Source of the DNA: Polyangium mundeleinium
Lineage (GTDB): Bacteria > Myxococcota_A > Polyangia > Polyangiales > Polyangiaceae
NCBI RefSeq assembly: GCF_028369105.1
Contig: NZ_JAQNDO010000001.1
Location: 1,779,711-1,843,710, forward strand
DNA length: 64,000 bases
Direction of reading: 5' to 3'
Shown: in pieces, positions 9,167-24,461 of the stretch
Numbering within the stretch: position 1 is the first letter of the stretch
How the letters are laid out: every line of letters begins with the position of its first letter
Notes under the pieces: generated by a model
What the model saw: the letters and a program-made list of their open reading frames with translations, nothing else
Databases searched by the model: none
Told to the model about the DNA's origin: nothing
Program-made: the position numbers and the translations under genes

Positions 9167-12100
9167 ATGCGCGCCATGCGACCGCGCCCCCCGACGGGTT
9201 TGTCCCCCACGCTCTTCGTGCTCCTCGCGCTCGTGGCCCTCGGCTGCGGCGACGGAGGTGATGGCATTCCGCCGCGCCCGACCGATGCCGGGACCGACGC
9301 CACCGAGACCGATGCCTCCGAGATCGACGCGGGGTGTCCGCCGGGATCGTACCCCGACGGCGGCGCGTGCGTGATCGACGCGAGCTGCAAGGACAACCCC
9401 TGCGGCGAACACGGGACGTGCGACGATTCGAGTGGATCGGCCGTCTGCACGTGCGAGAAGGGCTGGGGCGGCGCGACGTGCACGTCGTGTGACGCCGCGG
9501 GCGGCTACCACGACGACGGCAGCGGAGGTTGCACGACGGACCCGTGCGTGCCGGATCCGTGCATGTCGGCCGATCGCATCTGCGATGGAAGCTCGGGCAG
9601 CGCGCAGTGTGTTTGCAAGCCCGGCACGCACGACGAGGGCGGCGTGTGCGTCGAGGACAAGACATGCCTGCCGACGACGTGCAGCGGTCACGGGAGCTGC
9701 GACGACAGGGGCGGCAAGGCCGTGTGCATGTGCGACGTCGGATGGAGCGGGAGCGCATGCGACGCGTGTGACGACGCAGGGGGGTATCACAGCGATGGAA
9801 ACGGCGGCTGCACGACGGACCCGTGTCTGCCGAATCCCTGCGTGGCCCCGCACGCGAGCGTGTGCACGGTCGAAGGGGGATCCACGGTCTGCGGCTGCGA
9901 TCCCGGGTATCACGACGTGAACGGCGCTTGCGTGATCGATGAGGTTTGCACGCCGTCGACGTGCTCGGGCCATGGAGCGTGCGTGGTCGAAGGCGGCCAC
10001 GTGGTCTGCACGTGTGACGCCGGCTTCGCCGGGGATTCGTGTGATACGTGCGACGTGGCGGGCGGGTATCACGACGACGGGAGCGGCGGCTGCACGACGG
10101 ACCCGTGCCTGCCGAACCCCTGCGACATGCCGAACAAGACGGTCTGCGCGGGACAAGGCGCGTCGTACGTGTGCTCGTGTGATGCGGGGTATCACGACGA
10201 CGGGAGCGGCGGGTGCACCGACGATCCCTGCACGCCGAACGTCTGCCTCGTGATGAACCAGGCCTGCCAGGTCGTGGGCGGGATGCCGCAGTGCTACACG
10301 CCCGATTGCGACGATCAGAACCCGTGCACGGTCGATACGGTCGTGGGCGGGAGCTGCGAGCACACGCCGCGCCCCAACGGGACGATGTGCCAGACGTCGC
10401 TCTGCATCGTGGGGGAGGCATGCCAGGCGGGCACCTGCGCGGGTGGCAGCCCGCGGGTGTGCGACGACGGCAATGCGTGCACGGACGACACGTGTGATCT
10501 CGCGGTGGGGTGTGTCGCGACGAACGACAACACGAACGTGCCGGACGACGGGATCGCGTGCACGATCGACAAGTGCGCGGGCGGCCTCGCGTCGCACACG
10601 ACGAGCAACGCGGCTTGTGACGACGGGGCGTGGTGCACGGGCGCGGAGGTCTGCGCGCCGCTCCAGGCGGGCGCGGACGCGGAGGGGTGCGTGCACGTGA
10701 ACGTGCCGCAGAAGCCCGTGAGCATCAGCCCGTGCGTGAGTTATGGCGCGTGCGACGAGGCGACGAAGTCGTTCCCGCCCGTGTTCGCGTCGCCGGGGAG
10801 CACCTGCAACGACGGCATCCCGTGCACGAGCGGCGACGTCTGCGACGCGCAGGGCGCTTGCAAGGGGACGGCCTCGATCGGTTGTGATGGCGGGGCTTGC
10901 GCGACCACGCACCCCGGCACGGGCGACGTGAACATCCCGGTCGGCGTGGTGAGCGGGACGATCACGCTCGGAGGCGCGGCGGTGCCCGCGACGAATACCG
11001 AGTCGGACGGCGCGGAGATCTACCTCGTGGCGAAGGACACGAAGGCAGCGCATTACATCGGCGGTTATAGCTACCAGTTCCAGTCGGGGGGCGTGTATTC
11101 GCTGCTCCCGAACGCCTACGGCGGCAAGGTGGTCGCGGGCGTGTACGACGTGCTCTACCGGCGGGGCTGGGGGTCTGCCGGGAATACGGTGACGCGTACG
11201 CAGCCGGCAGCAACGCACGTGAATGGCTATCGGATCCTCGCGACGGGCGTGGTCATCGGCACGGGGGAGAGCAAGCTGGACGTGAACATTCCGGTGGCGA
11301 GCGTGAGCGGTACGATCACGCTCGGAGGCGCGGCGGTGCCCGCGACGAATACCGAGTCGGACGGCGCGGAGATCTACCTCGTGGCGAAGGACACGAAGGC
11401 AGCGCATTACATCGGCGGTTATAGCTACCAGTTCCAGTCGGGGGGCGTGTATTCGCTGCTCCCGAACGCCTACGGCGGCAAGGTGCTCGCGGGCACGTAT
11501 GACGTGCTGTATCGGCGGGGCTGGGGGTCTGCCGGGAACACGGTGACGCGTACGCAGCTCGCGGCGACGCACGTGAATGGCTACCGGATTCTGGCGACGG
11601 ACGTGACGCTCTCGGCAGGGTCGAACACGCTGAACGTGGACATCCCGGTGGCGAGCGTGAGCGGTACGATCACGCTCGGGGGCGCGGCGGTTCCGGCGAC
11701 GAACACGGAGTCGGACGGCGCGGAGATTTACCTCGTGGCGAAGGACACGAAGGCCGCGCATTACATCGGCGGTTATAGCTACCAGTTCCAGTCGGGGGGC
11801 GTGTATTCGCTGCTCCCGAATGCCTACGGCGGCAAGGTGCCTGCGGGTACGTATGACGTGCTCTATCGGCGGGGCTGGGGGTCTGCCGGGAACACGGTGA
11901 CGCGTACGCAGCTCGCGGCGCCGCATGTGAATGGGTATCGGATTCTGGCGACGGATGTGACGCTTTCGGCAGGGTCGAACACGCTGGACGTGGACCTCCC
12001 GGTGGCGAGCGTGAGCGGTACGATCACGCTCGGGGGCGCGGCGGTGCCGGCGACGAACACGGAGTCGACCGGCGCGGAGATCTACCTCGTGGCGAAGGAC

Positions 12101-13033
12101 ACGAAGGCTGCGCATTACATCGGCGGTTATAGCTACCAGTTCCAGTCGGGGGGCGTGTATTCGCTGCTCCCGAACGCCTACGGCGGCAAGGTGCCTGCGG
12201 GTACGTACGACGTGCTGTATCGGCGGGGCTGGGGGTCTGCCGGGAACACGGTGACGCGTACGCAGCTCGCGGCGACGCACGTGAATGGGTATCGGATCCT
12301 GGCGACGGACGTGACGCTTTCGGCAGGGTCGAACACGCTGAACGTGGACCTCCCGGTGGCGAGCGTGAGCGGTACGATCACGCTCGGGGGGGCGGCGGTG
12401 CCGGCGACGAACACGGAGTCGACCGGCGCGGAGATCTACCTCGTGGCGAAGGACACGAAGGCCGCGCATTACATCGGCGGTTATAGCTACCAGTTCCAGT
12501 CGGGGAGCGTGTATTCGCTGCTCCCGAACGCCTACGGCGGCAAGGTGCCTGCGGGTACGTACGACGTGTTGTATCGGCGGGGCTGGGGGTCGAGCGGGAA
12601 CACGGTGACGCGTACGCTTCTGGCGGGGACGCACGTCAATGGCTATCGGATTCTGGCGACGGACGTGACGCTCTCGGCAGGGTCGAACACGCTGGACGTA
12701 GACCTCCCGGTGGCGAGCGTGAGCGGTACGATCACGCTCGGGGGCGCGGCGGTGCCGGCGACGAACACGGAGTCGACCGGCGCGGAGATCTACCTCGTGG
12801 CGCAGGACACGGCGGCCGCGCATTACATCGGGGGCTACAGCTACCAGTTCCAGTCGGGGGGCGTGTATTCGCTGCTCCCGAACGCCTATGGCGGCAAGGT
12901 GCCTTCGGGGACGTATGACGTGCTCTACCGGCGGGGCTGGGGGTCGAGCGGGAACACGGTGACGCGTACGCTCGTGACGGCCGCGCACGTCAATGGGTAC
13001 CGGCTTCTGGATCGATGCATGACGACGCCTTGA
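9167..13033 (+). CDS. Large secreted lipoprotein of 1288 aa: EGF-like/Myxococcus cysteine-rich repeats followed by six tandem ~118-aa beta-sandwich-like repeats (adhesin-like)
   Basis: Lipoprotein signal LLALVALGCGDG. About six copies of C..NPCGEHGTCDD....C.C..GW.G..C..CD.AGGYHDDGSGGCTTDPC. Further CDDGNACTDDTCD-type repeats (Myxococcus cysteine-rich repeat). Then six copies of NIPVASVSGTITLGGAAVPATNTES.GAEIYLVAKDTKAAHYIGGYSYQFQSGGVYSLLPNAYGGKV..GTYDVLYRRGWGS.GNTVTRT. Confidence 0.85.
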   Translation: MRAMRPRPPTGLSPTLFVLLALVALGCGDGGDGIPPRPTDAGTDATETDASEIDAGCPPGSYPDGGACVIDASCKDNPCGEHGTCDDSSGSAVCTCEKGWGGATCTSCDAAGGYHDDGSGGCTTDPCVPDPCMSADRICDGSSGSAQCVCKPGTHDEGGVCVEDKTCLPTTCSGHGSCDDRGGKAVCMCDVGWSGSACDACDDAGGYHSDGNGGCTTDPCLPNPCVAPHASVCTVEGGSTVCGCDPGYHDVNGACVIDEVCTPSTCSGHGACVVEGGHVVCTCDAGFAGDSCDTCDVAGGYHDDGSGGCTTDPCLPNPCDMPNKTVCAGQGASYVCSCDAGYHDDGSGGCTDDPCTPNVCLVMNQACQVVGGMPQCYTPDCDDQNPCTVDTVVGGSCEHTPRPNGTMCQTSLCIVGEACQAGTCAGGSPRVCDDGNACTDDTCDLAVGCVATNDNTNVPDDGIACTIDKCAGGLASHTTSNAACDDGAWCTGAEVCAPLQAGADAEGCVHVNVPQKPVSISPCVSYGACDEATKSFPPVFASPGSTCNDGIPCTSGDVCDAQGACKGTASIGCDGGACATTHPGTGDVNIPVGVVSGTITLGGAAVPATNTESDGAEIYLVAKDTKAAHYIGGYSYQFQSGGVYSLLPNAYGGKVVAGVYDVLYRRGWGSAGNTVTRTQPAATHVNGYRILATGVVIGTGESKLDVNIPVASVSGTITLGGAAVPATNTESDGAEIYLVAKDTKAAHYIGGYSYQFQSGGVYSLLPNAYGGKVLAGTYDVLYRRGWGSAGNTVTRTQLAATHVNGYRILATDVTLSAGSNTLNVDIPVASVSGTITLGGAAVPATNTESDGAEIYLVAKDTKAAHYIGGYSYQFQSGGVYSLLPNAYGGKVPAGTYDVLYRRGWGSAGNTVTRTQLAAPHVNGYRILATDVTLSAGSNTLDVDLPVASVSGTITLGGAAVPATNTESTGAEIYLVAKDTKAAHYIGGYSYQFQSGGVYSLLPNAYGGKVPAGTYDVLYRRGWGSAGNTVTRTQLAATHVNGYRILATDVTLSAGSNTLNVDLPVASVSGTITLGGAAVPATNTESTGAEIYLVAKDTKAAHYIGGYSYQFQSGSVYSLLPNAYGGKVPAGTYDVLYRRGWGSSGNTVTRTLLAGTHVNGYRILATDVTLSAGSNTLDVDLPVASVSGTITLGGAAVPATNTESTGAEIYLVAQDTAAAHYIGGYSYQFQSGGVYSLLPNAYGGKVPSGTYDVLYRRGWGSSGNTVTRTLVTAAHVNGYRLLDRCMTTP
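10930..13033 (+). repeat. In-frame tandem array of six 354-bp near-identical repeats inside the lipoprotein gene
   Basis: Unit starts at 10930, 11284, 11638, 11992, 12346 and 12700; the last copy is cut by the stop codon. The identical 237-nt antisense ORFs 11863..12060 and 12178..12414 are a by-product. Confidence 0.85.
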
Positions 13034-13081: not shown

Positions 13082-16000
13082 TCATCCCACCCGATCCCGG
13101 AGCGGCACCGATGCGACTCGCTTCGGCTCGGCAGCCCGATCAAAGGGGGCGCCCGCGGCTTCCAGTGCCGTGATCGCCTCGGCCGCGAGCCGCATCGCGC
13201 GAACCCCGTCCTCCGCCGATACCTTCGGTCGATCGCCCCGGGCGACGCTCTCCCGGAACGCGACGAGCAGCCGCGCGAGGTCGCCTCCGCGCGGCGGCGT
13301 GCGCGTCCGTTTGCCTCCGGCGTCGCTCACCTCCACGAGGTCACGTCCCTCCGAGCGTATCCAGGACAAACGCCTTCCATCGGCGAGGCGCGCGCGCACT
13401 TCGAGGGCGTCCGCCGCCTCGGCGAGCAAGAGCTCGATCGTCACGTCCGGCTGGGAGGGACCGGCGCCGCGCGCGCGCAAGGTCACGCGCTCGGGTCGAC
13501 CGCCACCCTTGGCCGTGGCCTTTCGGATGCGGAGATCTTCGCCTGCCACGGCGTGCGCCACGTCGCCGAGGTGGATCAAGAGCTCGTAGAGCGCCGTGCG
13601 CGACCACGCGTGCAAGCTCGCGGGCGAGGTGGCCGTGGCCCGGTGAACGACCTCGATTTCGAGAGGACGATCGGGACCTTTTTGATCCCCGAGCACCGTG
13701 AGAATCTCTTCGAGCCCGCCCGCCGTGCGGAGCTGCTGCGCCACCGTGATGCGCTCTCCTGCCTCGGCCGCGAGCGCTTCGGCCTCGGCGAGTGTCGCGC
13801 CGAGCGGTTTTTCCACGAGGCAGGGGAGCCCGCGCGCCAAGGCGTCGCGCGTGATGTCCGCGTGCTGCCGCGTGCTCGTGGCGACGATCACCGCGTCGAT
13901 CGTGGCACGCTCGCAGAGCTCCGCGAGCGTCCGCGCGCGGGGCACGTCGGCCGCGATCTCCGGCAGATCCTTGTCCGGCGCATGCGGGGACGTGATGCCG
14001 GCGAGGACGAACCCGCCCGCTTGCTCCAGCGCAGCCGCGAAGGCGAGGCCCCGCCGGCCCGTGCCGACGATCGCGACACGGAGGGCGCGCGGCGCGGGGG
14101 AGGCTTGGGCCACGGGCAGGTGGATACGCTCGCGCGGCGCTTCCGGGAGCGGGATTTCGTCGCTCCGCGGGATGCGGCCGTCGCCGAAGCGGAGCTCGTC
14201 GAGGCGGTCGATCCCGGGCCGGAAGCGCGCAATGCGGGGCTCGGCGAGGCAACGCTCGGGCGTGATTTTCTCGCCCGGGATGGCCCGGAGCTCGCCGGTG
14301 CCGAAGACCGCCGCATACGGCTTCCATACGCCCGTGCAGACGAGGTCGAAGCGGCACGCGGCACAGGCCGGGCCTTTCTGCTTTTGCGGCAGGTCCTCCG
14401 TCAGCGCGCCGCTGAGCGAGACGAGCACGTCGCTCCACGGCATCATCTCTTCGAGCTGGCAGGGCGGGACGCCCTGGCGCGAGCCGACCACGACTTCGAC
14501 GCCGAGCTCGTTCGCCCGCGCGATCGCGCGCTTCAGGTAGGGCATCACGTCCGAGAAGCGGGGCACGTGGTCGGCGAGGCGTTCGAGGGCCTTGTATTGC
14601 GGCGTGACGTACGCGAACGAGATGCCGATGCGCGCGCCGAACTCGGCGTGCATCCACTCGACGAACCGCACGAGGTGCCGATGGTTCTGCGCGGACACGA
14701 CGTGGTTCACGTCGAGCCGGAGGGCGTCGTGGCGCGCGAAGAGGTGGAGCGCCCGCACCGTCCGCGCGTGGTCGCCCATCTTGCGGGTTTGCAGCCGCGC
14801 GAGCGCCTCGTCGTGCGCGTGCAGCGAGACGAAGACGTTCGTGAGGCCCGCCGCGACGAGGGCGTCGACCTTCTCCGGTTTGTCGAGGAGCACCGCGTTC
14901 GTGACGAGCTCGATGCTGCGGACGCCGGTCCGCTTGGCCACGGACACGTAATCGACGAGGTGGCGCGAGAGCGTGGGTTCGCCGCCGCTGAACGAGATTT
15001 GCTCGACCCCCGTGCGGCCGAGGCGCGCGATCCGCCGCATCATCCGGCCCGGATCCTCCTCCACGTTGTGGGAGGTCTCGTTCGCGCTGCAGAACCAGCA
15101 GTCCTGGTTGCAATGGACCGTCGGGCGGAGGACGGTGAAAAACGCCGCGCGCGCCGCGCTCTTGCGGGTCTCGTCCCAGCGCTCGCGCGGGCGCTGCTGC
15201 GGGGCGCGGGGCAAGGGGGACAACCCCGCGGCGCCGTGCGTGGAGAGGTAAAGCGTGGTCGTGCCGGGGCAGGCGCGCGAGGCGCCGCAGGCGTCGCAGG
15301 CCGGCGCGAGCGAGGAGGTGGCATGGCGCGGAATGGGACGGCCGCCACGATCGGCGAGCAAACGCTCGGGGACGTCGATGCCGCCGTCCGGGGTTTGGGT
15401 CGCGACGGCGCAGAGGGGGATCCCGTCGCGCTCGGTCAGCGTGATTTCGAGCCCCTTTTCCCGGGCAAACCCGATCGCCGCGAGGAGCCCGTCCCGCGCC
15501 CGATCCCAGCGGGGCGGCGCGAGCTCGCGTGGCGCGCGTCCATCCACGGGCCTTAGCGCGGAGGGCGTGTACAGGCGGACGCGACGTGCGCTCGGCGCCA
15601 CGCCCGCGAGGAGCGCGATCATCCCGCGGAGGTCCTGGATCGCAGGATCGAGCACCGGGATCTCGAGGACGAGGTCGAGCCCCGTCGCCGCGATCGCGCG
15701 GAGGCCCGCGAGGCCCGCGGTGAACGCGCCTCGCACGCGGGCGATCGCGTCGTGCACGGCCGCTCGATCGCTCGCGAGGAAAAATACGACCCCCGAGAGG
15801 CCCGCGGCGCGGAGCTCCTCGGCGCGCCCCTCGGCGGCGTAGGCCACGCCGTTCGTCCGCGCGTACACTGCGCCCCAGCCCGCGTCGCGCGCGTTCTGCA
15901 CGAGCGCGCGCAGATCCTTCAGACGTGAAGCTTCTCCGCGCAGCTCGAGCACGCCGCCGCCGCGACGGAGCTCGCGCTGCTGGGTTCCTTCGTCCGGCGG

Positions 16001-16102
16001 CTTGCCGCGGCAATCACAGACGGGGCAGGCGAGGTTGCAGCCCTCGGCGAGCAGGAGGCTCGTGTCGGTCGTGCCGGCGCGGGGGCTCATGGGAGAGCGC
16101 AT
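13082..16102 (-). CDS. Tri-domain protein: radical SAM – radical SAM – Gfo/Idh/MocA-family NAD(P)-dependent oxidoreductase
   Basis: Two CxxxCxxC cluster motifs (GCNLACPVCDC near the N-terminus; HCNQDCWFCSA mid-protein, coding near 15085-15115). The second is followed by FSGGEPTL. Each is followed by a C-x2-C-x5-C auxiliary motif (PACDACGASRACPG, PACAACRFDLVCTG). The C-terminal Rossmann region LRVAIVGTGRRGLAFAAAL...IDAVIVATSTRQHADITRDALARGLPCLVEKP is typical of Gfo/Idh/MocA. Confidence 0.85.
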   Translation of the reverse strand: MRSPMSPRAGTTDTSLLLAEGCNLACPVCDCRGKPPDEGTQQRELRRGGGVLELRGEASRLKDLRALVQNARDAGWGAVYARTNGVAYAAEGRAEELRAAGLSGVVFFLASDRAAVHDAIARVRGAFTAGLAGLRAIAATGLDLVLEIPVLDPAIQDLRGMIALLAGVAPSARRVRLYTPSALRPVDGRAPRELAPPRWDRARDGLLAAIGFAREKGLEITLTERDGIPLCAVATQTPDGGIDVPERLLADRGGRPIPRHATSSLAPACDACGASRACPGTTTLYLSTHGAAGLSPLPRAPQQRPRERWDETRKSAARAAFFTVLRPTVHCNQDCWFCSANETSHNVEEDPGRMMRRIARLGRTGVEQISFSGGEPTLSRHLVDYVSVAKRTGVRSIELVTNAVLLDKPEKVDALVAAGLTNVFVSLHAHDEALARLQTRKMGDHARTVRALHLFARHDALRLDVNHVVSAQNHRHLVRFVEWMHAEFGARIGISFAYVTPQYKALERLADHVPRFSDVMPYLKRAIARANELGVEVVVGSRQGVPPCQLEEMMPWSDVLVSLSGALTEDLPQKQKGPACAACRFDLVCTGVWKPYAAVFGTGELRAIPGEKITPERCLAEPRIARFRPGIDRLDELRFGDGRIPRSDEIPLPEAPRERIHLPVAQASPAPRALRVAIVGTGRRGLAFAAALEQAGGFVLAGITSPHAPDKDLPEIAADVPRARTLAELCERATIDAVIVATSTRQHADITRDALARGLPCLVEKPLGATLAEAEALAAEAGERITVAQQLRTAGGLEEILTVLGDQKGPDRPLEIEVVHRATATSPASLHAWSRTALYELLIHLGDVAHAVAGEDLRIRKATAKGGGRPERVTLRARGAGPSQPDVTIELLLAEAADALEVRARLADGRRLSWIRSEGRDLVEVSDAGGKRTRTPPRGGDLARLLVAFRESVARGDRPKVSAEDGVRAMRLAAEAITALEAAGAPFDRAAEPKRVASVPLRDRVG

Positions 16103-16151
16103 TGTTCGCCGCGGGAGACGCCGCGCGCAAGAGGAACGGGACTAGGGTACC

Positions 16152-17981
16152 ATGCGCTGGATGCGCGTCGCGCGGGTGCTCACGAACGAGACCTGCAACC
16201 AGGGTTGCGGCTTTTGCTCGGCGCGAAGGCCGGTCGAACGGCCTGATTTCGTGCGCCCCGCGGCCGTGCTCGCTCGCATCGACGAGGCGCTTGCCAAGGG
16301 CACGCGCGAGGTCGTGCTGACGGGCGGCGAGCCCACGATGCGGCGGGATCTCGCGGCGCTCGTCCGGCACGCCCGCGCGCGCGGCGCCGAGCGCGTCGTG
16401 CTGGAGACGAACGCGTCGCTCGTCACGGAGAGCCTCGCGCGCGCGCTCGCCGACGCAGGTCTTTCGGTCGCGCGCGTGCACGTGCCGGCGTTTGGCCCCG
16501 AGGCGGACGGGATCACGCGTGACGAGGGCGGGTTCTCCGCCGCGCTCGCGGGTGCGCGTGCCCTCGCCGCCGCGGGGATCCCGCTGGAGATCACGACGCC
16601 GATCGTTCGGAACAACCTCGACCTCGTCGCGGCGATCCCGGGCGGCGTGCGCGCGGCGAACCTCCCGGTCCTGCGCCTCGTCGCGTCCATGCCCGTGGAC
16701 GCGCCCGATCCCGCGACGCTCGCGCCGCTCGAAGGCGCCGCGCGTGCGCTCGAACGGCTCGATCAGGCCGCGCGGGAGGCCGGCATCCCGCTCTCGCTCG
16801 ACCCTGGCGCGGCCATCCCTCCGTGCTCGTTCGAGCGGCCCGCGCGCCTCGCGCACCTCTACGCGTTGAACCCCGGCGGCGCGAATCGGCCGGGCCACGA
16901 GCGCGTGCCCGCGTGCGGCGCGTGTGTCGTCGCGGATCGTTGTCCCGGCGTGCCGCGCGCGCTCCTCGCGCGGGAGACCACGTCCGCCTTCCGGCCTCTC
17001 ATGGAGGACCGGATTCGCCGCAAGCTCACGGTGATCTCGTCGGTGCGCGAGCAGATCGATCGCGAGCTCGTGACCCGCGACGTCCACCGCGCGCCCGACG
17101 GCCGGCTCGTGCCTTCGCACATCGTACGCATCCAGTTCCAGTGCAACCAGGCCTGCGATTTTTGCTTCGTCTCCACGCACCTGCCGGCGCCCGAGGACGA
17201 GGTCGTGCGCCGCGCGATCCTCGAGATCGCGCACGCCGGCGGTGTCCTGCAAGTCTCGGGCGGCGAGCCGACCTTGAACGGCCGTCTCCGCGAGTACGTC
17301 GCGCTCGCGAAGCGTGAAGGGGCGATCGCCGTGGAGCTGCAGACGAACGCGGTGCGCCTCGCGGATCCGGGCCGCGCGCGCGAGCTCGAAGAGGCCGGGC
17401 TCGACGTGGCGTTCGTGTCGCTGCACGGGTCGCGCGCCGAGATCTCGGACGTGATCACGCGGGCGCCGGGCACGTTCGAGAAGACGGCGCGGGGGCTCGA
17501 CGCGCTCGCGCAGACGAAGATCCGCGTGCGGCTGAACTTCGTTTTCTGCGAGCCGAACCAGGCGGATTTCCCGGACTTCGTGCGCCTCGTCGCGGCGCGC
17601 TGGCCGGCCGCGGAGATCAACGTCTCGGTCGTCGGGGCATTCACGGACCTCGTGCCCCGCACGGAGAGCCTGATCCCGCGGTACACGGATCTGCTGCCGG
17701 CGATGCGCGAGGGCCTCATGATCGCGCGCGCGACGGGGATTCCGGTGCTCGGGTTCGAGTCGATGTGCGGGATCCCGCTCTGCCTCGCGCCCGTCGATCC
17801 ACGCGGGTTCTTCGACCTCGCCGAGATCCCGAACGGGCACGACGGCGGCGAGTTCGTCCGCGCAGAAGCGTGCGGGCGGTGTGAGCTTTCCGCGCGCTGC
17901 TTCGGCCTCCGGCGCAGCTACGCCGAGCTTCATGGGACCAGCGAGGCGCGTGCGGTCGTGCGGGGCGCCGAGATCGGCTGA
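16152..17981 (+). CDS. Tandem (double) radical SAM domain protein with twitch/SPASM-like auxiliary Cys motifs
   Basis: TCNQGCGFCSA at residues ~14-24 and QCNQACDFCFV (coding near 17142); each is followed by GGEPT (LTGGEPTM, VSGGEPTL) and a C-x2-C-x5-C motif (PACGACVVADRCPG, EACGRCELSARCFG). It is divergent from the 13082..16102 gene with only 49 bp between start codons. Confidence 0.85.
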   Translation: MRWMRVARVLTNETCNQGCGFCSARRPVERPDFVRPAAVLARIDEALAKGTREVVLTGGEPTMRRDLAALVRHARARGAERVVLETNASLVTESLARALADAGLSVARVHVPAFGPEADGITRDEGGFSAALAGARALAAAGIPLEITTPIVRNNLDLVAAIPGGVRAANLPVLRLVASMPVDAPDPATLAPLEGAARALERLDQAAREAGIPLSLDPGAAIPPCSFERPARLAHLYALNPGGANRPGHERVPACGACVVADRCPGVPRALLARETTSAFRPLMEDRIRRKLTVISSVREQIDRELVTRDVHRAPDGRLVPSHIVRIQFQCNQACDFCFVSTHLPAPEDEVVRRAILEIAHAGGVLQVSGGEPTLNGRLREYVALAKREGAIAVELQTNAVRLADPGRARELEEAGLDVAFVSLHGSRAEISDVITRAPGTFEKTARGLDALAQTKIRVRLNFVFCEPNQADFPDFVRLVAARWPAAEINVSVVGAFTDLVPRTESLIPRYTDLLPAMREGLMIARATGIPVLGFESMCGIPLCLAPVDPRGFFDLAEIPNGHDGGEFVRAEACGRCELSARCFGLRRSYAELHGTSEARAVVRGAEIG

Positions 17982-18027: not shown

Positions 18028-19317
18028 ATGGAGCGTGCCGTGTCGGGGGTACGGAGCAAAAGGGTGCCGGGCGAGCGAGACAAGGCCACGACCGTTCTGT
18101 CCATGGTCGGCCTCCCTGCGCGGGGAAAAACGTACATCGGGCGCCGCGTGGCGCGTTACCTGAGCTGGCTCGGTCATCCGACCCGCGTGTTCAACGTGGG
18201 GAGCTACCGTCGCCGGCAGATCGGCGCGAGCCAGCCAGCCGACTTCTTCGCGCCGTCGAACAAGGAAGGCCGGCAGGTCCTGCACGATCTCGCCATGACG
18301 GCGCTCGACGACATGCTCGCCTGGCTGCGCGAGGGCGGCGAGGTCGGCATCTTCGACGCGACGAACAGCACGAAGGAGCGCAGGCGCCTCGTCGAGGAGC
18401 GGTGCCGCAAGGAGGGGCTGCCGGTCGTCTTCATCGAGTCGTTCTGCAACGACCCGGGGGTGATCGAGGCGAACGTCCGCGATACGAAGCTCAAGTCGCC
18501 GGACTACGTCGACATGGATCCGGACGCGGCGGCGCACGACTTCCTGCGGCGCATCGCCCACTACGAGAGCATGTACGAGACGCTCGAGGATCCGAACCAG
18601 AGCTACATCAAGATCATCGACGTCGGCCGCCAGGTGATCCTGAACCGGATCCACGGCTACCTGCCCGCGCGCCTCGCGCCCCTGCTCATCGACCTGCACG
18701 TCTCGCCGCGCCCGATCTGGCTGACGCGGCACGGGCAAAGCGACTACAACCGGCACGGCCGCATCGGCGGCGATCCCGAGCTCTCCCCCGCGGGCGAGGA
18801 GTACGCGAAGCACCTGGCGGAGTTCGTTCGGAAGAACGCGCCGCGGGATCAAGAGGTGTCGGTCTGGACGAGCACGCTGCGGCGGACGATCCAGACGGCG
18901 ACGAAGATCACGCGGTCACCGCGGACCTGGCGTGCGCTCGACGAGATCGACGCGGGCGTCTGCGACGGGATGACGTACGACCAGGTGCGGATCGAGATGC
19001 CGGACGTGTGGGCCGCGCGGAGCGCCGACAAGTTCCGGTATCGATATCCGCGCGGAGAGTCGTACGAGGACGTGATCCAGCGGCTCGACCCGGTGATCAT
19101 CCAGCTCGAGCGCCAGCGCTCGCCGACCTTGGTGATCGCGCACCAGGCGGTGCTCCGGGCGATCTACGCGTACCTGATGGACCGGCCGCCGGGCGAGTGC
19201 CCGTCGATCAGCGTGCCGCTGCACACGGTGATCCAGTTGACGCCGACGGCGTACGGCTGCGAGGAGAAACGATTCGCGCTGCCGCCAAACGTGGAGGATC
19301 AGGGGGCGGGGGGATAG
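18028..19317 (+). CDS. Bifunctional 6-phosphofructo-2-kinase/fructose-2,6-bisphosphatase (PFK-2/FBPase-2), eukaryote-type
   Basis: The kinase P-loop and flanks (MVGLPARGKTYIGRRVARYLSWLGHPTRVFNVGSYRR) are near-identical to animal PFKFB N-termini. The C-terminal histidine-phosphatase domain carries WLTRHGQS (RHG) and a second His in VIAHQAVLRAIYAYL. The true start may be the internal Met at ~18103. Confidence 0.85.
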   Translation: MERAVSGVRSKRVPGERDKATTVLSMVGLPARGKTYIGRRVARYLSWLGHPTRVFNVGSYRRRQIGASQPADFFAPSNKEGRQVLHDLAMTALDDMLAWLREGGEVGIFDATNSTKERRRLVEERCRKEGLPVVFIESFCNDPGVIEANVRDTKLKSPDYVDMDPDAAAHDFLRRIAHYESMYETLEDPNQSYIKIIDVGRQVILNRIHGYLPARLAPLLIDLHVSPRPIWLTRHGQSDYNRHGRIGGDPELSPAGEEYAKHLAEFVRKNAPRDQEVSVWTSTLRRTIQTATKITRSPRTWRALDEIDAGVCDGMTYDQVRIEMPDVWAARSADKFRYRYPRGESYEDVIQRLDPVIIQLERQRSPTLVIAHQAVLRAIYAYLMDRPPGECPSISVPLHTVIQLTPTAYGCEEKRFALPPNVEDQGAGG

Positions 19318-20633: not shown

Positions 20634-22856
20634 TCAATACGAGGAGGAGGGCGGGATTTCGGGGGCCTCTGTGCTCTCGGCCGGCGGCTTGGGGGTCAGG
20701 CGAAGGTGCTCGCGAATCGAGGAGACCCCGGCCTCGCGCTCCGGGAAGGGGAGACGCAGCGCGGAGCTCTTCACACAGGCGCCGAACGAGGTTTCGCCCG
20801 GCGGCGAGGTGAGCTTCACGTCGCCGACGAACCCGTCCGCGCCCACGCGGAACTGGAGGTCGAGGTCGATCGGCTCGCCAGGGCGCTTGTCGAACTCGAT
20901 GCGGTAGCAATCCCGGATCTCGGCGTGGAGGACCGCGAGGCCAACGTCGACGTCTTCCCGCGTGAGGTTGCCCGAGACCTGGGCTTCTTCGGCTTCCTCC
21001 AGCGTCACGGTCTCCGGCGCTTGCTCCGGGGCGGGCGGTGAGAGCGTCGCGCGTGTGCGCTGCTCCAGAGGCTCGGCGACCGTCACGTCGAACGTGGGGA
21101 CCGACTGCGTCTCGCCGTTGCGCGTCTGCATCGTTCGCTTGGCCGAGAGGACGGAAGCGACGACGCCGTGGGCCTCTTCGAGCCGCGTGTCTGGCGACAA
21201 ACGGATCAGCGCGCGGTCACGCATTCGGTCCTGCGGGTCGTGGTGCGCGCCGTGGTCCTTCCAGATGTCCGCCACCACCGCGGCCAGCGTCGGATGACGC
21301 ACGTCCCCCGGCGCAGCTTCGCGGGGCGCGCGGCGCAGCACGGTGACGATGTCGCGGATGCGCCACTTCACGACGAACTCGTCGAGCGTGGCGTCGACGT
21401 CGAGGAAGCCGGGCGGAGGTGCGTGGGGCGCGTGGGGCTCGATGGGCTCGGCAGGCTGGCGGAGCGGCGGCGCGAGCGGGAGGGCGGGCACGACGATACG
21501 GGCGCCGACGCGCGGATCGGGCAGCGTGACGCGGAGGGGCACGCTGAAGTAGCGGCCTTCGAGGAGAAGGTCGTACGCGCCGTCGCCGAGGCCGTCGAAG
21601 CGTACGGGCACGCCGTCCTCCCAGCGCGCCGGGGGGAACTGAAAGCCGAGCACGATCTGCGCAGGGGTCGTGGGCGGGAGTTCGGTCGGGAAGGGGCTCG
21701 CGAGATCCACGACGAGCGTGCCCGGAGGCAAGGACGGGTCCGCGAGGGAGACGCCGGGGTGCGCGGTGAGGCGGGTCTGGTCGGCGACGAGCGATTCGAT
21801 GTGGCGGAGCGCGGCGTTCGTGGGGAGCACGAAGAGGGCCGGCGCGAGCGCGAGGAGGAGCGTCACGAGGAAGGCGGGGCGCGCGCGGGAGAGGGCGCCG
21901 GTGAGGCCACGCGGCGGCATCGCGACGAGCGTCGTGAGGACGATCGGAAGGGCGAAGATCGCGCCGGTGGCGGTGAGCTCGACCGTCGTGCGGCGGAGGT
22001 CTCGCGCGGCGTGCCCGAGCGCGGGGAGGGTGGTGCCAGGCGTCGAGATGGCGATGACCTCGCCCATCGCAGGTGCGAGCGCCGCGAGGAGGACGCCGCC
22101 GATGCCCGCGCACGCGGCGGCGAGCAGGCGCGTGGCGGCATAACCGTCGCCCCGGTTCGTCCGCGACGCGCCGAGCACCACGGCGACGAGACCCATGCCC
22201 GCGGGCAGCGCCGCGATCCAGCTCCCGACCGCGTCGCGGCCGAGGTCGTCCTTGCCGAGGAGGCGCGCGACGAGCGCCGCCGCCGGGAGCGAGAGCGCGG
22301 CGACGACGAGCGCGGCGAGGGGGCGTTTGTCCTTGTTGATCGACGCCGTCACGCGTCCAGGCCGGAGCGAGAGCGCGGCGACGCCGAGCGAGATCGACGC
22401 GACGAGCAGGCCGGCATCGAAGAGGGACGCGCGAAGCATCAACGCGGAGGCCGCGGCGCGCGCGCGTTCGCCGAACGAGAGATCGGGCGCTGGGGCCAGC
22501 GGATCCGGCATCCACGCAATCGAGGCGGCGAGCGTGATGGCGGCGAGGATGGCGGGCGGCAGGCAGACGAGCGACGCGGCGGCGCGCCTCTGCGCGACGA
22601 AGCGGGTGAGGGCGATCGTCGTGGCGAGCGCGAATCCGAGGCCGAAGCCTACGGCGAGCGCGCCGCGCGGCTCGGCGAGGTGCAGGTTGAAGAAGGCGAC
22701 GCGCACGAGCCCCGCCTCGGACTCGGCGAGCAGGACGAGCGCGACGGCGATCGGCACGAGGAGCGTGATCGTCGCGACAGCGAGGTTTTGCCGCGTGCGT
22801 CGGGACGCGCGGCGGGCTCGCTCTTCGGGCTTGCCCGAGGCGTCCTTGTCAGCCAC
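20634..22856 (-). CDS. Polytopic membrane protein with a C-terminal soluble domain, function unknown
   Basis: The probable start is GTG at 22854-22856 (VADKDASGKPEE...). The part of ORF 20634..23822 above that is Arg-rich antisense of the divergent 22941 gene. At least ten hydrophobic helices follow, then a Cys-containing C-terminal domain. Confidence 0.6.
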   Translation of the reverse strand: MADKDASGKPEERARRASRRTRQNLAVATITLLVPIAVALVLLAESEAGLVRVAFFNLHLAEPRGALAVGFGLGFALATTIALTRFVAQRRAAASLVCLPPAILAAITLAASIAWMPDPLAPAPDLSFGERARAAASALMLRASLFDAGLLVASISLGVAALSLRPGRVTASINKDKRPLAALVVAALSLPAAALVARLLGKDDLGRDAVGSWIAALPAGMGLVAVVLGASRTNRGDGYAATRLLAAACAGIGGVLLAALAPAMGEVIAISTPGTTLPALGHAARDLRRTTVELTATGAIFALPIVLTTLVAMPPRGLTGALSRARPAFLVTLLLALAPALFVLPTNAALRHIESLVADQTRLTAHPGVSLADPSLPPGTLVVDLASPFPTELPPTTPAQIVLGFQFPPARWEDGVPVRFDGLGDGAYDLLLEGRYFSVPLRVTLPDPRVGARIVVPALPLAPPLRQPAEPIEPHAPHAPPPGFLDVDATLDEFVVKWRIRDIVTVLRRAPREAAPGDVRHPTLAAVVADIWKDHGAHHDPQDRMRDRALIRLSPDTRLEEAHGVVASVLSAKRTMQTRNGETQSVPTFDVTVAEPLEQRTRATLSPPAPEQAPETVTLEEAEEAQVSGNLTREDVDVGLAVLHAEIRDCYRIEFDKRPGEPIDLDLQFRVGADGFVGDVKLTSPPGETSFGACVKSSALRLPFPEREAGVSSIREHLRLTPKPPAESTEAPEIPPSSSY

Positions 22857-22940
22857 GTCGCGCAGGGTATCCGGACCGGGCCCCGCGCCGCGAGGGAAAA
22901 ACCGTGACAACGCGCCGCGGCCGTCGATACCCTGCACGGC

Positions 22941-24461
22941 ATGCGCGCCGCGGGCGTCTTCGCGTGGGCCTTCTTGACGGCTGCGGCCGCGTCGGCCGAA
23001 GCATTCCCGGGCTACTTCTTCCTGGACAGGAGGGACTCGAAGATCCCGAACAGCGCGACGACCGTGGTGATCGCGCGGCGCGGGACGCGCACCGTCGTCT
23101 CGATGCAAATGGACTACACCGCACCGGCCGAGACCTATGATCTCGACACGGTGCCCCTGCGGCCCACGTACATCGTCGAGCAGACCGGGGTCGAGATGAT
23201 CGTGCCCGTGCCGGCCACGTTCAACCCCGACGCGGTGAAGAGGCTCCCGAGCGACATTTTCGAGCGGCTCGACGTGAGCAGCGCGCCGCGGCTCGTCGAA
23301 TCCTGGCAGCAGGATCCCTGCACCTACGCGGACATCGCCTCGATTGCGGCCCGCGACAAGGAGGGCGGCCCGAGCGTGCTGCCGGACGAGGGCTCCACGC
23401 GTCCCCGTGCCCAGGAAACGTCTCGCGTCCAGATCGACGCGCAATTCGCGGTGCGCGGCGCCTCCATCAACGTCATCGAGCCCTCCGACCTGGAGCCTTG
23501 GCTCGAGAGACGGGAGAAGCACATTCCGGAGAACGTCGCGACCGTGCTGCGCTCGTACAAGGAGGCCGGGTGGAAATTCTTCGTGACGCGTTTCTATCCC
23601 TCGCACGTCGAGATCCGCAGAGGCCGCTCCGTGTCCTCGCCCATTCAATTCGAATACGACGCAGAGGAGGTCCGGCTGCCTTTGCGCCTCGGGCTCTCGA
23701 GCTCGGCGGGCACGCAGGACCTCGTGGTGCACGTGCTCGCGGAGGACAGGTACGAGGCCACGAATTTCCCGAACCTCACGATTCCCACGAACGTGGAGGT
23801 CGACGGGGCGGCCCGCGCGCACTTCGGCGAGTTCTACGCGTCGCTCTTCGACGCGACGCTCGACAAGAATCCCGGCGCGTTCGTGACCGAATACGCGTGG
23901 GACGCGGAGTCGTGTGATCCGTGTCCGGGGCCCTTGCTTTCGCCCGAGGATCTACGATGGCTGGGCGCGCCGTCGGGGATGGTCGTGCATACGCGGCTTC
24001 ATGCGCGTTATCGCAAGGAGGCGCTCGGAGAGGACCCCGTTTTGCGGGTCGCGCCGCCGATCCAGGGCGGGCGCGGCGGCGAGGGGCAGGCGGCGGTGCC
24101 CGCGGAGGTGAGCACGTTTCAGGGGCGTTACGTCCTTCGCCACCGCTGGCAGGGCCCCGTGACGTGCCCGAGCCCCGATTTCGATATCTGGGGCGGGCCG
24201 CCGAGCGCGGACCTCACGAGCGTGCGGCCCGCCACGCCGTCCTCCGAGGTGGTGCGGGGGAAGGTCTATCTTTCAGCGATGGTGCGCGATTCCGTGCCGG
24301 CTGCCGGGGTCGTCGCGAAGCCGCGCCCGGACGAGGGCTCGGCGGGAAAGCGATTCTTGCTCGGCTTCGGCCTTGGCGCGGGCGCAGGGCTCTTCGGCAC
24401 GATCGGCGTGGTATTGGCGGTGACCCAAAGACGGCGCGTTTCGCGCAGGATTTCGCCATAA
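22941..24461 (+). CDS. Secreted protein with a C-terminal TM anchor (possibly DUF2330-like), function unknown
   Basis: Signal peptide MRAAGVFAWAFLTAAAASAEA; C-terminal hydrophobic segment LLGFGLGAGAGLFGTIGVVLAV followed by RRRVSRR. Confidence 0.7.
   Translation: MRAAGVFAWAFLTAAAASAEAFPGYFFLDRRDSKIPNSATTVVIARRGTRTVVSMQMDYTAPAETYDLDTVPLRPTYIVEQTGVEMIVPVPATFNPDAVKRLPSDIFERLDVSSAPRLVESWQQDPCTYADIASIAARDKEGGPSVLPDEGSTRPRAQETSRVQIDAQFAVRGASINVIEPSDLEPWLERREKHIPENVATVLRSYKEAGWKFFVTRFYPSHVEIRRGRSVSSPIQFEYDAEEVRLPLRLGLSSSAGTQDLVVHVLAEDRYEATNFPNLTIPTNVEVDGAARAHFGEFYASLFDATLDKNPGAFVTEYAWDAESCDPCPGPLLSPEDLRWLGAPSGMVVHTRLHARYRKEALGEDPVLRVAPPIQGGRGGEGQAAVPAEVSTFQGRYVLRHRWQGPVTCPSPDFDIWGGPPSADLTSVRPATPSSEVVRGKVYLSAMVRDSVPAAGVVAKPRPDEGSAGKRFLLGFGLGAGAGLFGTIGVVLAVTQRRRVSRRISP

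Follow-up and report, generated by a model that had tools for sequence, protein, structure and literature searches.

Introduction

What do two neighboring genes do that are transcribed away from each other, that both encode two radical S-adenosylmethionine (SAM) modules in tandem, and one of which ends in a dehydrogenase domain of the sugar type? This question is raised by a locus of Polyangium mundeleinium (Polyangiaceae; contig NZ_JAQNDO010000001.1, positions 1,779,711 to 1,843,710), which was analysed within the whole stretch of 64,000 nucleotides, hereafter called the window. Both genes, A and B, encode tandem radical-SAM proteins, and that of A carries a Gfo/Idh/MocA oxidoreductase as a fused part. 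The radical-SAM enzymes with auxiliary clusters carry out some of the hardest reactions known in the biosynthesis of natural products, cofactors, and lipids. In our study, we found that A and B are very probably radical-SAM enzymes. The reading we prefer, to which we give a probability of about 0.45, is that they tailor a hydroxylated small molecule, for example a sugar or a cyclitol, through successive radical and NAD(P) (nicotinamide adenine dinucleotide or its phosphate) redox steps. An earlier note made by a model from the letters of the DNA, the original prediction, had described the pair as a candidate uncharacterised radical maturation or biosynthetic system.

The A/B locus

Gene A was found at 13082–16102 on the minus strand, where the longest open reading frame (ORF) encodes 1006 amino acids, and gene B at 16152–17981 on the plus strand, where the ORF encodes 609 amino acids. 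The divergent intergenic gap (16103–16151) was 49 bp with the longest ORFs and becomes 61 bp if A starts at M5, the start used by NCBI. The NCBI version of A (MDC0741172.1, 1002 amino acids, start M5; also P0121) and that of B (MDC0741173.1; also P0001) matched with 100% identity, A to Polyangium mundeleinium, the contig that carries them measures 13.2 Mb, and the sole NCBI name for both was "radical SAM protein". The GC3 (G+C at the third codon position) was 0.88 in A and 0.90 in B, the coding signature of a genome with 70% G+C, and they were the only ORFs in their region to carry it. A scan of the gap found no promoter of the sigma-70 consensus, which is uninformative for this organism.

Radical-SAM modules

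Each protein contained two halves. The N-terminal half of A (residues ~12–305; 15188–16069, minus strand) is a degenerate radical-SAM-like module, recognized only by its homology to the other halves, with conserved cysteines and a confident AlphaFold2 model; the C-terminal half (residues ~318–612; 14267–15151, minus strand) is a radical-SAM half with a PF04055 match of E = 1e-26 over residues 327–482. The N-terminal half of B (residues ~4–290; 16161–17021, plus strand) and its C-terminal half (residues ~318–603; 17103–17960, plus strand) were both identified by PF04055, by their motifs, and by the homology of the halves. The Pfam Radical_SAM model (PF04055) was above its gathering score in A at residues 327–482 (94 bits) and in B in two stretches that cover both halves (149 bits, E = 2e-43). 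The N-terminal 310 residues of A contained no Pfam Radical_SAM match.

The layout was the same in every half: a CxxxCxxC motif, later a P-x-C, and then, 30–37 residues on, C-x2-C-x5-C-x-G. In the radical-SAM superfamily the CxxxCxxC motif binds the [4Fe-4S] cluster that cleaves SAM. Conservation of the cysteines was judged in alignments of 24–28 members with 38–87% identity, in which all four CxxxCxxC motifs and all four of the four-cysteine sites that follow them were invariant or at least 90% conserved. The C-terminal half of A contained CNQDCWFC at 331–338, SFSGGEPTL at 370–378, and the site C548/C580/C583/C589; no other part of the family was as conserved, CNQDCxFCSANE and SFSGGEPTL being invariant. 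The N-terminal half of B contained CNQGCGFC at 15–22, TGGEPT at 57–62, and the site C225/C255/C258/C264, followed in the C-terminal half by CNQACDFC at 331–338, SGGEPT at 369–374, and the cysteines C544/C574/C577/C583, where C539 and C466 were likewise invariant. The N-terminal half of A contained CNLACPVC at 22–29, extended to CNLACPVC(DC) at 22–31, RGEASR in place of GGEPT, a valine at the aromatic position of CxxxCx-aromatic-C, and the site C231/C269/C272/C278. In this half, C22 and C26 were at least 90% conserved, and C29, C31, C231, C269, C272, and C278 were invariant; C31 is an extra invariant cysteine.

The ORFs, the 49-bp gap, and the four CxxxCxxC motifs had all been placed correctly by the original prediction, as had GGEPT after three of the motifs, the degenerate segment in the CNLACPVC domain, and the C-x2-C-x5-C motif after each core, which in every case is preceded by a further conserved cysteine. 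Its count of four complete radical-SAM domains holds for the three halves matched by PF04055, but not for the N-terminal half of A, which has neither GGE, nor the aromatic residue, nor a Pfam match. It had also proposed a twitch/SPASM flavor for the auxiliary sites. The SPASM part did not stand, as no match to PF13186 was found at E ≤ 0.1 in A or B. The pattern of only four conserved auxiliary cysteines per half (C-x30–37-C-x2-C-x5-C) fits one auxiliary cluster of the twitch-like kind and not the two of SPASM.

A tandem unit would thus hold up to four [4Fe-4S] clusters, one radical-SAM cluster and one auxiliary cluster in each half. The four-cysteine sites most likely hold auxiliary clusters fully ligated by cysteine, which would therefore act in electron relay. 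Judged by their motifs, both halves of B look catalytically competent, as does the C-terminal half of A but not its N-terminal half. The latter keeps its cysteines but has lost the GGE that binds SAM, so it is probably a cluster-bearing scaffold or an electron relay.

Duplication of the modules

The four halves, of ~300 amino acids each, were found to align with one another end to end in BLASTP. The E-value was lowest between the two C-terminal halves (2e-34), followed by the N-terminal half of A with the C-terminal half of B (7e-21), the two halves of B (2e-16), the C-terminal half of A with the N-terminal half of B (1e-12), the two N-terminal halves (4e-9), and the two halves of A (6e-9). 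The hhalign scores were 357 for the two C-terminal halves, 203 for the two N-terminal halves, and 184 for the N-terminal half of A with the C-terminal half of B, and the probability for the N-terminal half of A against the other halves was 99.7–99.8%. Residues 16–608 of A and 9–602 of B aligned colinearly with 30% identity over 633 amino acids. By sequence comparison, then, A and B are paralogs and each is a head-to-tail duplication of a module of ~300 residues, which bears out the domain duplication that had been suggested from the similarity of the halves. The orthology is positional, N-terminal to N-terminal and C-terminal to C-terminal, and together with the colinear alignment it places the tandem duplication before the split of A and B.

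The AlphaFold2 model of B had a predicted local distance difference test score (pLDDT) of 90.5 and a predicted template-modeling score (pTM) of 0.74. The model of A had a pLDDT of 84.8 and a pTM of 0.43, the latter because the geometry between its domains is uncertain; the linker at 656–670 had low pLDDT and was disordered. The N-terminal half of A was modeled with a pLDDT of ~85–95, and its strands and helices alternate as in the other halves.

The dehydrogenase domain of A

The C-terminal part of A (residues ~672–985; 13148–14089, minus strand) is a Gfo/Idh/MocA NAD(P)-dependent oxidoreductase domain, identified by PF01408, Foldseek, and conserved residues. The Pfam model GFO_IDH_MocA (PF01408) matched residues 674–783 with 66 bits against a cut-off of 24, and the C-terminal Pfam model PF02894 had no match in A. 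The GxGxxG motif was present as GTGRRG, in which G680 and G682 were invariant, and the E764-K765-P766 motif with the catalytic lysine (EKP) and H844, the probable catalytic histidine in the C-terminal alpha/beta domain, were invariant as well. The model of residues 672–985 superposed over its full length on solved Gfo/Idh/MocA enzymes with a target-normalized TM-score of 0.7–0.84. The Foldseek matches included TM_0414, myo-inositol dehydrogenase, GnnA (TM-score up to 0.84), 1,5-anhydrofructose reductase, and GenD2, and all of these named top matches are oxidoreductases of sugars, cyclitols, or sugar nucleotides.

The complete two-domain fold, GxGxxG, EKP, and the histidine are thus common to A and to the characterized enzymes (myo-inositol dehydrogenase, UDP-GlcNAc 3-dehydrogenase GnnA, 1,5-anhydrofructose reductase, and GenD2), whereas the identity to them was only 16–25%. 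The usual Asp-x3-His pair differs in that the aspartate reads as glutamate in A (LYE..H motif). The fusion to the radical-SAM part was present in 120 of the 120 homologues listed; this and the single ORF refute a frameshift artefact, so the complete fused domain of the original prediction is upheld. We know of no characterized Gfo/Idh/MocA member that is fused to radical-SAM domains, and our literature searches on radical SAM with Gfo/Idh/MocA found no such fusion.

Linkage of A and B

The linkage of the two genes was studied in 78 non-redundant A loci, 46 of which had at least 5 kb on both sides (well-flanked loci). Within the Polyangium clade, a divergent B ortholog was found 50–107 bp from A in 9 of 11 loci, gaps of this size being kept across the clade. 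In P. jinanense SDU13 (L012, 8629–10001) and in the metagenome-assembled genome (MAG) L019 (8579–10001), the syntenic site was cleanly devoid of B, with the 6PF2K gene directly beside A. Outside Polyangium, the B ortholog was directly upstream of A on the same strand in L006, L028, and L038, divergent from A in L049 and L069, and convergent, downstream of A, in L024 and L030; in these seven loci it adjoined A or lay within ~1.2 kb of it. A B ortholog 6–8 kb from A was found in L036, L056, and L076. Seven further loci contained a different tandem paralog, 27–31% identical to B, directly upstream of A on the same strand. Of the 46 well-flanked loci, 23 had a tandem paralog of any kind within 10 kb of A and 11 had a B ortholog in that range, and in 23 of the 78 loci a B ortholog or another tandem paralog directly adjoined A.

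In genomes of 5–13 Mb, and with three orientations in distant families, these counts are far above chance, and the linkage survives rearrangement. A and B are genuinely but only partly linked: the association does not extend to every locus, and the orientation varies. A co-conserved mirrored pair with a shared control region, as originally proposed, is therefore borne out as to linkage beyond chance, but the divergent layout belongs to the level of Polyangium and is not a fixed module.

These loci also bear on an alternative in which A and B are functionally independent paralogs, and their adjacency in Polyangium is a remnant of duplication or of local rearrangement. B is missing between A and 6PF2K in the two genomes named above, half of the well-flanked A loci (23 of 46) have no tandem paralog within 10 kb, and B orthologs without A were found in L007 and L087–L091; moreover, B orthologs are more conserved (53–60% identity) and more numerous than A orthologs (38–43%). 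Against it stands the linkage itself, which is found across Polyangiaceae, Sandaracinaceae, Minicystis, and Binatia in three orientations and is far above what would be expected of unlinked genes. We consider independence of the two genes to be unlikely.

Family size and distribution

More than 1000 homologues of B were found (word-filtered), typically with 53–60% identity and ~600 amino acids, and at least 187 homologues of A, with 38–43% identity outside the Polyangium clade. In a search of 1.84 billion cluster representatives (50%-identity clusters), 377 matched B at E ≤ 1e-30, so that the view of proteins with two radical-SAM domains as uncommon does not hold in this lineage. About 100 of the best 150 cluster representatives aligned to B end to end, and the matching representatives included fusions of 800–1500 amino acids and proteins with three to five matched stretches. 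Triple radical-SAM proteins were confirmed by Pfam in P0100 and P0113. The family appears to grow by repeated concatenation of modules.

Some longer relatives were also seen. In P0338, P0349, and P0393 four to five matched stretches were present in one polypeptide, and P0221 and P0236 (~1470 amino acids) contained N-terminal extensions of A of ~490 amino acids that include a further radical-SAM match.

With one genome per species searched, relatives of A were found in 305 stretches. The best 80 of the 305 came nearly all from Myxococcota (Polyangiaceae, Sandaracinaceae, Kofleriaceae, Paraliomyxa, Minicystis, and an Archangiaceae MAG), together with several Binatia MAGs; the cultured hosts among these 80 were Polyangium species and Paraliomyxa miuraensis.

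Genomic context

The genes that immediately flank A outside Polyangium were Radical_SAM in 38 of 96 cases, and no other family occurred more than four times. Radical-SAM islands, with at least seven radical-SAM genes within 23 kb of the A homologue, were found in L003/L082 (Archangiaceae MAG), L006 (Minicystis MAG), and L004 (delta-proteobacterial MAG). This setting of A among many radical-SAM genes, found in other Myxococcota and in Binatia, had escaped the original prediction. Two recurrent partners, U1 and U2, are proteins of ~600 amino acids without CxxxCxxC that have weak radical-SAM or HpnJ-like similarity and a DUF483 match. They were found in 17 and 16 loci, respectively (for example, L004 6126–9746 and L001 4069–7829), usually paired, divergent or in tandem, beside A and a tandem paralog. 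Wherever they carry a name, it is "hypothetical protein", and no Polyangium isolate was found among the top 120 homologues. By their sequence, U1 and U2 may be pseudo-radical-SAM scaffolds.

Another recurrent partner was a fusion of a B12-type radical-SAM domain with a complete aldo-keto reductase (~850 amino acids; Pfam Aldo_ket_red E = 2e-55), which lay beside A in five distinct loci, L003 (7407–9956), L058, L062, L071, and L075; a related fusion was near A in L006 (15363–17975). A PA0069/SPL-like radical-SAM protein of ~390 amino acids recurred in 13 loci, and two more tandem families of ~612 and ~767 amino acids recurred as well. The best NCBIfam label of the partner radical-SAM genes was nearly always HxsC4, HxsC, or MoaA, below cut-off. 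In scans with NCBIfam, Pfam, and PADLOC, no curated family cut-off was reached by A, B, and 20 partner proteins beyond the superfamily models PF04055 and PF01408 in A and B.

The non-radical-SAM neighbors lean to glycan and glycolipid chemistry, vary by locus, and are not statistically enriched. They included GT2 and PMT_2 (ArnT-like) in L006, carbamoyltransferase, Rieske, PhyH, and GDSL genes in L004, and GT4 and PIG-L in L091. In L087 a UbiA prenyltransferase was found with genes dependent on flavin adenine dinucleotide (FAD) that match FAD_binding_3/Trp_halogenase, and in L003 a squalene-hopene-cyclase-like protein of 961 amino acids with an MPAB_Lcp_cat domain.

The window itself contained no U1, U2, x273, radical-SAM/aldo-keto-reductase fusion, r396, or B12-type radical-SAM gene; all matches were A and B.

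Other features of the window

A predicted lipoprotein of 1288 amino acids (9167–13033, plus strand) is convergent with A and contains the signal LVALGC and Cys-rich EGF-like modules; at 10925–13010 it carries 5.9 tandem copies of a 354-bp (118-amino-acid) unit with 93% identity. A eukaryote-type 6-phosphofructo-2-kinase/fructose-2,6-bisphosphatase (18028–19317, plus strand; Pfam 6PF2K E = 1e-74, with His_Phos_1) lies downstream of B, on its strand and at a distance of 47 bp, and it is kept beside the A/B pair in the Polyangium clade. Two ORFs of high GC3, at 20634–23822 (minus strand) and 22941–24461 (plus strand), overlap by ~880 bp on opposite strands, and the plus-strand ORF encodes a DUF2330 protein. 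Since both are conserved in Polyangium, the predicted 5' end of the long ORF on the minus strand probably lies too far out.

As partners of A and B, the genes for the EGF-repeat lipoprotein, 6PF2K/FBPase-2, DUF2330, and a pullulanase-like protein were considered and set aside, as they are syntenic only within the Polyangium clade; for the same reason the repeat lipoprotein, suggested at first as a possible substrate, is not supported in that role. The rest of the window contained genes for signaling kinases, VIT/VWA, Omp85, cytochrome b/c, and RNase J.

Proposed function

In the reading that we prefer, A would combine a radical step, in which dehydration, oxidation, or rearrangement follows from hydrogen abstraction, with an NAD(P)(H)-dependent interconversion of alcohol and ketone on the same hydroxylated substrate. 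The most plausible substrate would be a sugar, a sugar nucleotide, a cyclitol, or a glycolipid head group. Further radical steps on the same scaffold would fall to B or, in other loci, to another tandem paralog (B2). The pair could be seen as part of a toolkit of variable radical-SAM tailoring enzymes that is clustered in other genomes and reduced in Polyangium to a solitary A/B pair. The aldo-keto-reductase fusion of the sister loci, which arose independently, supports the coupled radical and redox reading of A.

Several points weigh against this reading. The carbohydrate part of it draws on the usual roles of Gfo/Idh/MocA enzymes and aldo-keto reductases and on the weak similarity to BlsE, and the assignment to carbohydrates or cyclitols, taken by itself, is tentative, with doubt outweighing confidence. 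No partner that would define the substrate was regularly linked to A, and no sugar-activating enzyme, transporter, or glycosyltransferase was enriched among the 96 genes flanking A outside Polyangium. The best NCBIfam labels are those of peptide maturases (HxsC4, HxsC), although they are far below their cut-offs. A and B are separable, as seen from the absence of B at the syntenic site in P. jinanense and one MAG, and in 23 of the 46 well-flanked loci A has no tandem partner within 10 kb. The cluster content, the cleavage of SAM, and the inactivity of the N-terminal half of A are predictions from sequence.

A wider proposal takes the tandem proteins, the relatives with many matched stretches, U1/U2, and the radical-SAM/reductase fusions together as parts of an unknown multi-step radical pathway of Myxococcota and Binatia, leading to a metabolite or cofactor derived from a carbohydrate, a cyclitol, or a glycolipid. 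The two halves of each protein would then form an intramolecular relay, one for catalysis and the other for electrons or a second SAM, and A and B of Polyangium would be the minimal surviving core. We regard this wider proposal as possible but rather doubtful.

Other substrates

Peptide modification is a frequent role of radical-SAM enzymes with auxiliary clusters, and A and B could be maturases of the kind that acts on peptides made by the ribosome and modified after translation (RiPPs) or on proteins, introducing cross-links, epimerizations, or other changes on a substrate encoded elsewhere. The top NCBIfam similarities (HxsC4 and HxsC, then PqqE, StsB, mycofactocin MftC, and the GDL-motif family) point this way, as do SkfB, SuiB, CteB, and anSME among the structural matches. 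The scores of the maturase models were nevertheless 86–125 bits against cut-offs of 268–500, and an N-terminal RiPP recognition element or PqqD-like domain was not present, the radical-SAM motif beginning at residue 15 in B and at residue 22 in A with no extension ahead of it. When ORFs of 30–130 amino acids were clustered over 86 loci, no conserved small ORF was found near A or B, and the recurring ones were antisense shadows of large genes, in line with the lack of a precursor-peptide-like ORF reported originally. No protease, transporter, or HxsA/B/D-like partner was enriched, neither the window nor the related loci contained a HxsA, HxsB, or HxsD partner or a gene for a His-Xaa-Ser peptide, and a fused sugar-type dehydrogenase is atypical for maturases. 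A peptide or protein substrate therefore seems improbable to us.

Tailoring of lipids or isoprenoids, either by a C-C coupling like that of Tes/GDGT-MAS or by the modification of a polyprenyl-linked or hopanoid/sterol-like lipid, is in our view still less probable. GDGT-MAS (Tes) was consistently among the best matches in sequence and structure, but the similarity lay in the generic core only, with 60–84 bits against a cut-off of 450. The U1 family is weakly similar to HpnJ/HpnR, and there are single loci with UbiA and FAD-dependent genes of a kind that includes prenyl reductases (L087) or with the squalene-hopene-cyclase-like gene (L003), in addition to the PMT_2 neighbors, a family that includes glycosyltransferases dependent on polyprenyl-phosphate sugars. 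Such neighbors were found in one to three loci each and were not enriched, and the Gfo/Idh/MocA domain points to a polar hydroxylated substrate rather than to an alkyl chain.

A role in nucleotide modification, as viperin-like antiviral or MoaA-like cofactor enzymes, is very improbable and its viperin/defense form was rejected: the best matches include MoaA, viperin, and BlsE, whose substrates are all nucleotides or nucleosides, the pVip models match, and the PA0069/SPL-like family recurs in 13 loci, but the matches to pVip and MoaA are confined to the first ~150–160 core positions and lie far below the curated cut-offs, the window has no defense-island context, and the auxiliary sites have four conserved cysteines against the three of the substrate-binding cluster of MoaA.

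Significance

Radical and redox tailoring of a hydroxylated small molecule thus remains our preferred reading, and A and B give radical-SAM enzymology a firm and uncommonly clean starting point, their function being so far a prediction from sequence. With hundreds of 50%-identity clusters and duplicated modules, the family is a well-defined uncharacterized target for enzymology and genome mining. Reductases of carbonyl and alcohol groups that depend on NAD(P) are joined to the family or its relatives in two independent fusions. In a cultured Polyangium the system is reduced to two genes, so that a knock-out or heterologous expression would be interpretable, and the degenerate N-terminal half of A offers a ready case in which to study the contribution of a pseudo-radical-SAM domain.

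Comparison with known systems

By the curated thresholds, A and B are not members of the HxsC, MoaA, viperin, Tes, or SPASM families, and no counterpart of the A/B family turned up in the collections of curated models, in the PDB, or in the literature that could be searched. Among curated models, HxsC and HxsC4 (TIGR03977 and NF038332) scored highest for each half and for the majority of the co-clustering radical-SAM genes, with A and B at 86–125 bits against cut-offs of 268 and 500. The best stretch of TIGR03977 covered 255–260 of its 292 positions in both A and B, including the C-terminal cysteine motif. HxsC consists of one domain and acts together with HxsA, HxsB, and HxsD, whereas A and B are tandem proteins.

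MoaA is the GTP 3',8-cyclase, and its auxiliary cluster has three cysteines, whereas four are conserved in the auxiliary sites of A and B. Its models (TIGR02666/TIGR02668) gave 77–117 bits against cut-offs of 284–325. MoaA, BlsE, and viperin each covered one half of B, at most 254 of 609 residues, with 17–23% identity. The similarity to BlsE, a cytosylglucuronate decarboxylase, was weak and generic (E = 1e-10, core only). The NCBIfam viperin model gave 51–63 bits against 180, and PADLOC pVip matched with E = 1e-17 to 1e-22, but only over profile positions 7–161 of 257–262.

Tandem radical-SAM proteins as such are already known, and MJ0619 is a natural example; like FbiC, it unites modules of different kinds whose roles are known. 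FbiC is a fusion of CofG and CofH that forms the F0 synthase, with two radical-SAM domains in one polypeptide (PMC11917521). The halves of FbiC belong to distinct families and carry out two known steps, whereas those of A and B are duplicates of one module; the 25 top NCBIfam models listed for A and for B (60 and 68 matched, respectively) included neither CofG nor CofH.

The closest functional analogy is the pair AprD4/AprD3, a radical-SAM diol dehydratase and an NADPH-dependent reductase of aminoglycoside 3'-deoxygenation (PMC5461906). In that pair the radical-SAM enzyme acts on a hydroxyl of the sugar, and a nicotinamide-dependent reduction of a ketone is coupled to this step; A, which has both types of domain in one chain, may by analogy work in a similar way. 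What sets the A/B family apart from the systems searched is the combination of duplicated modules of one type, a fusion to a sugar-type dehydrogenase, and, in other genomes, a place in radical-SAM islands.

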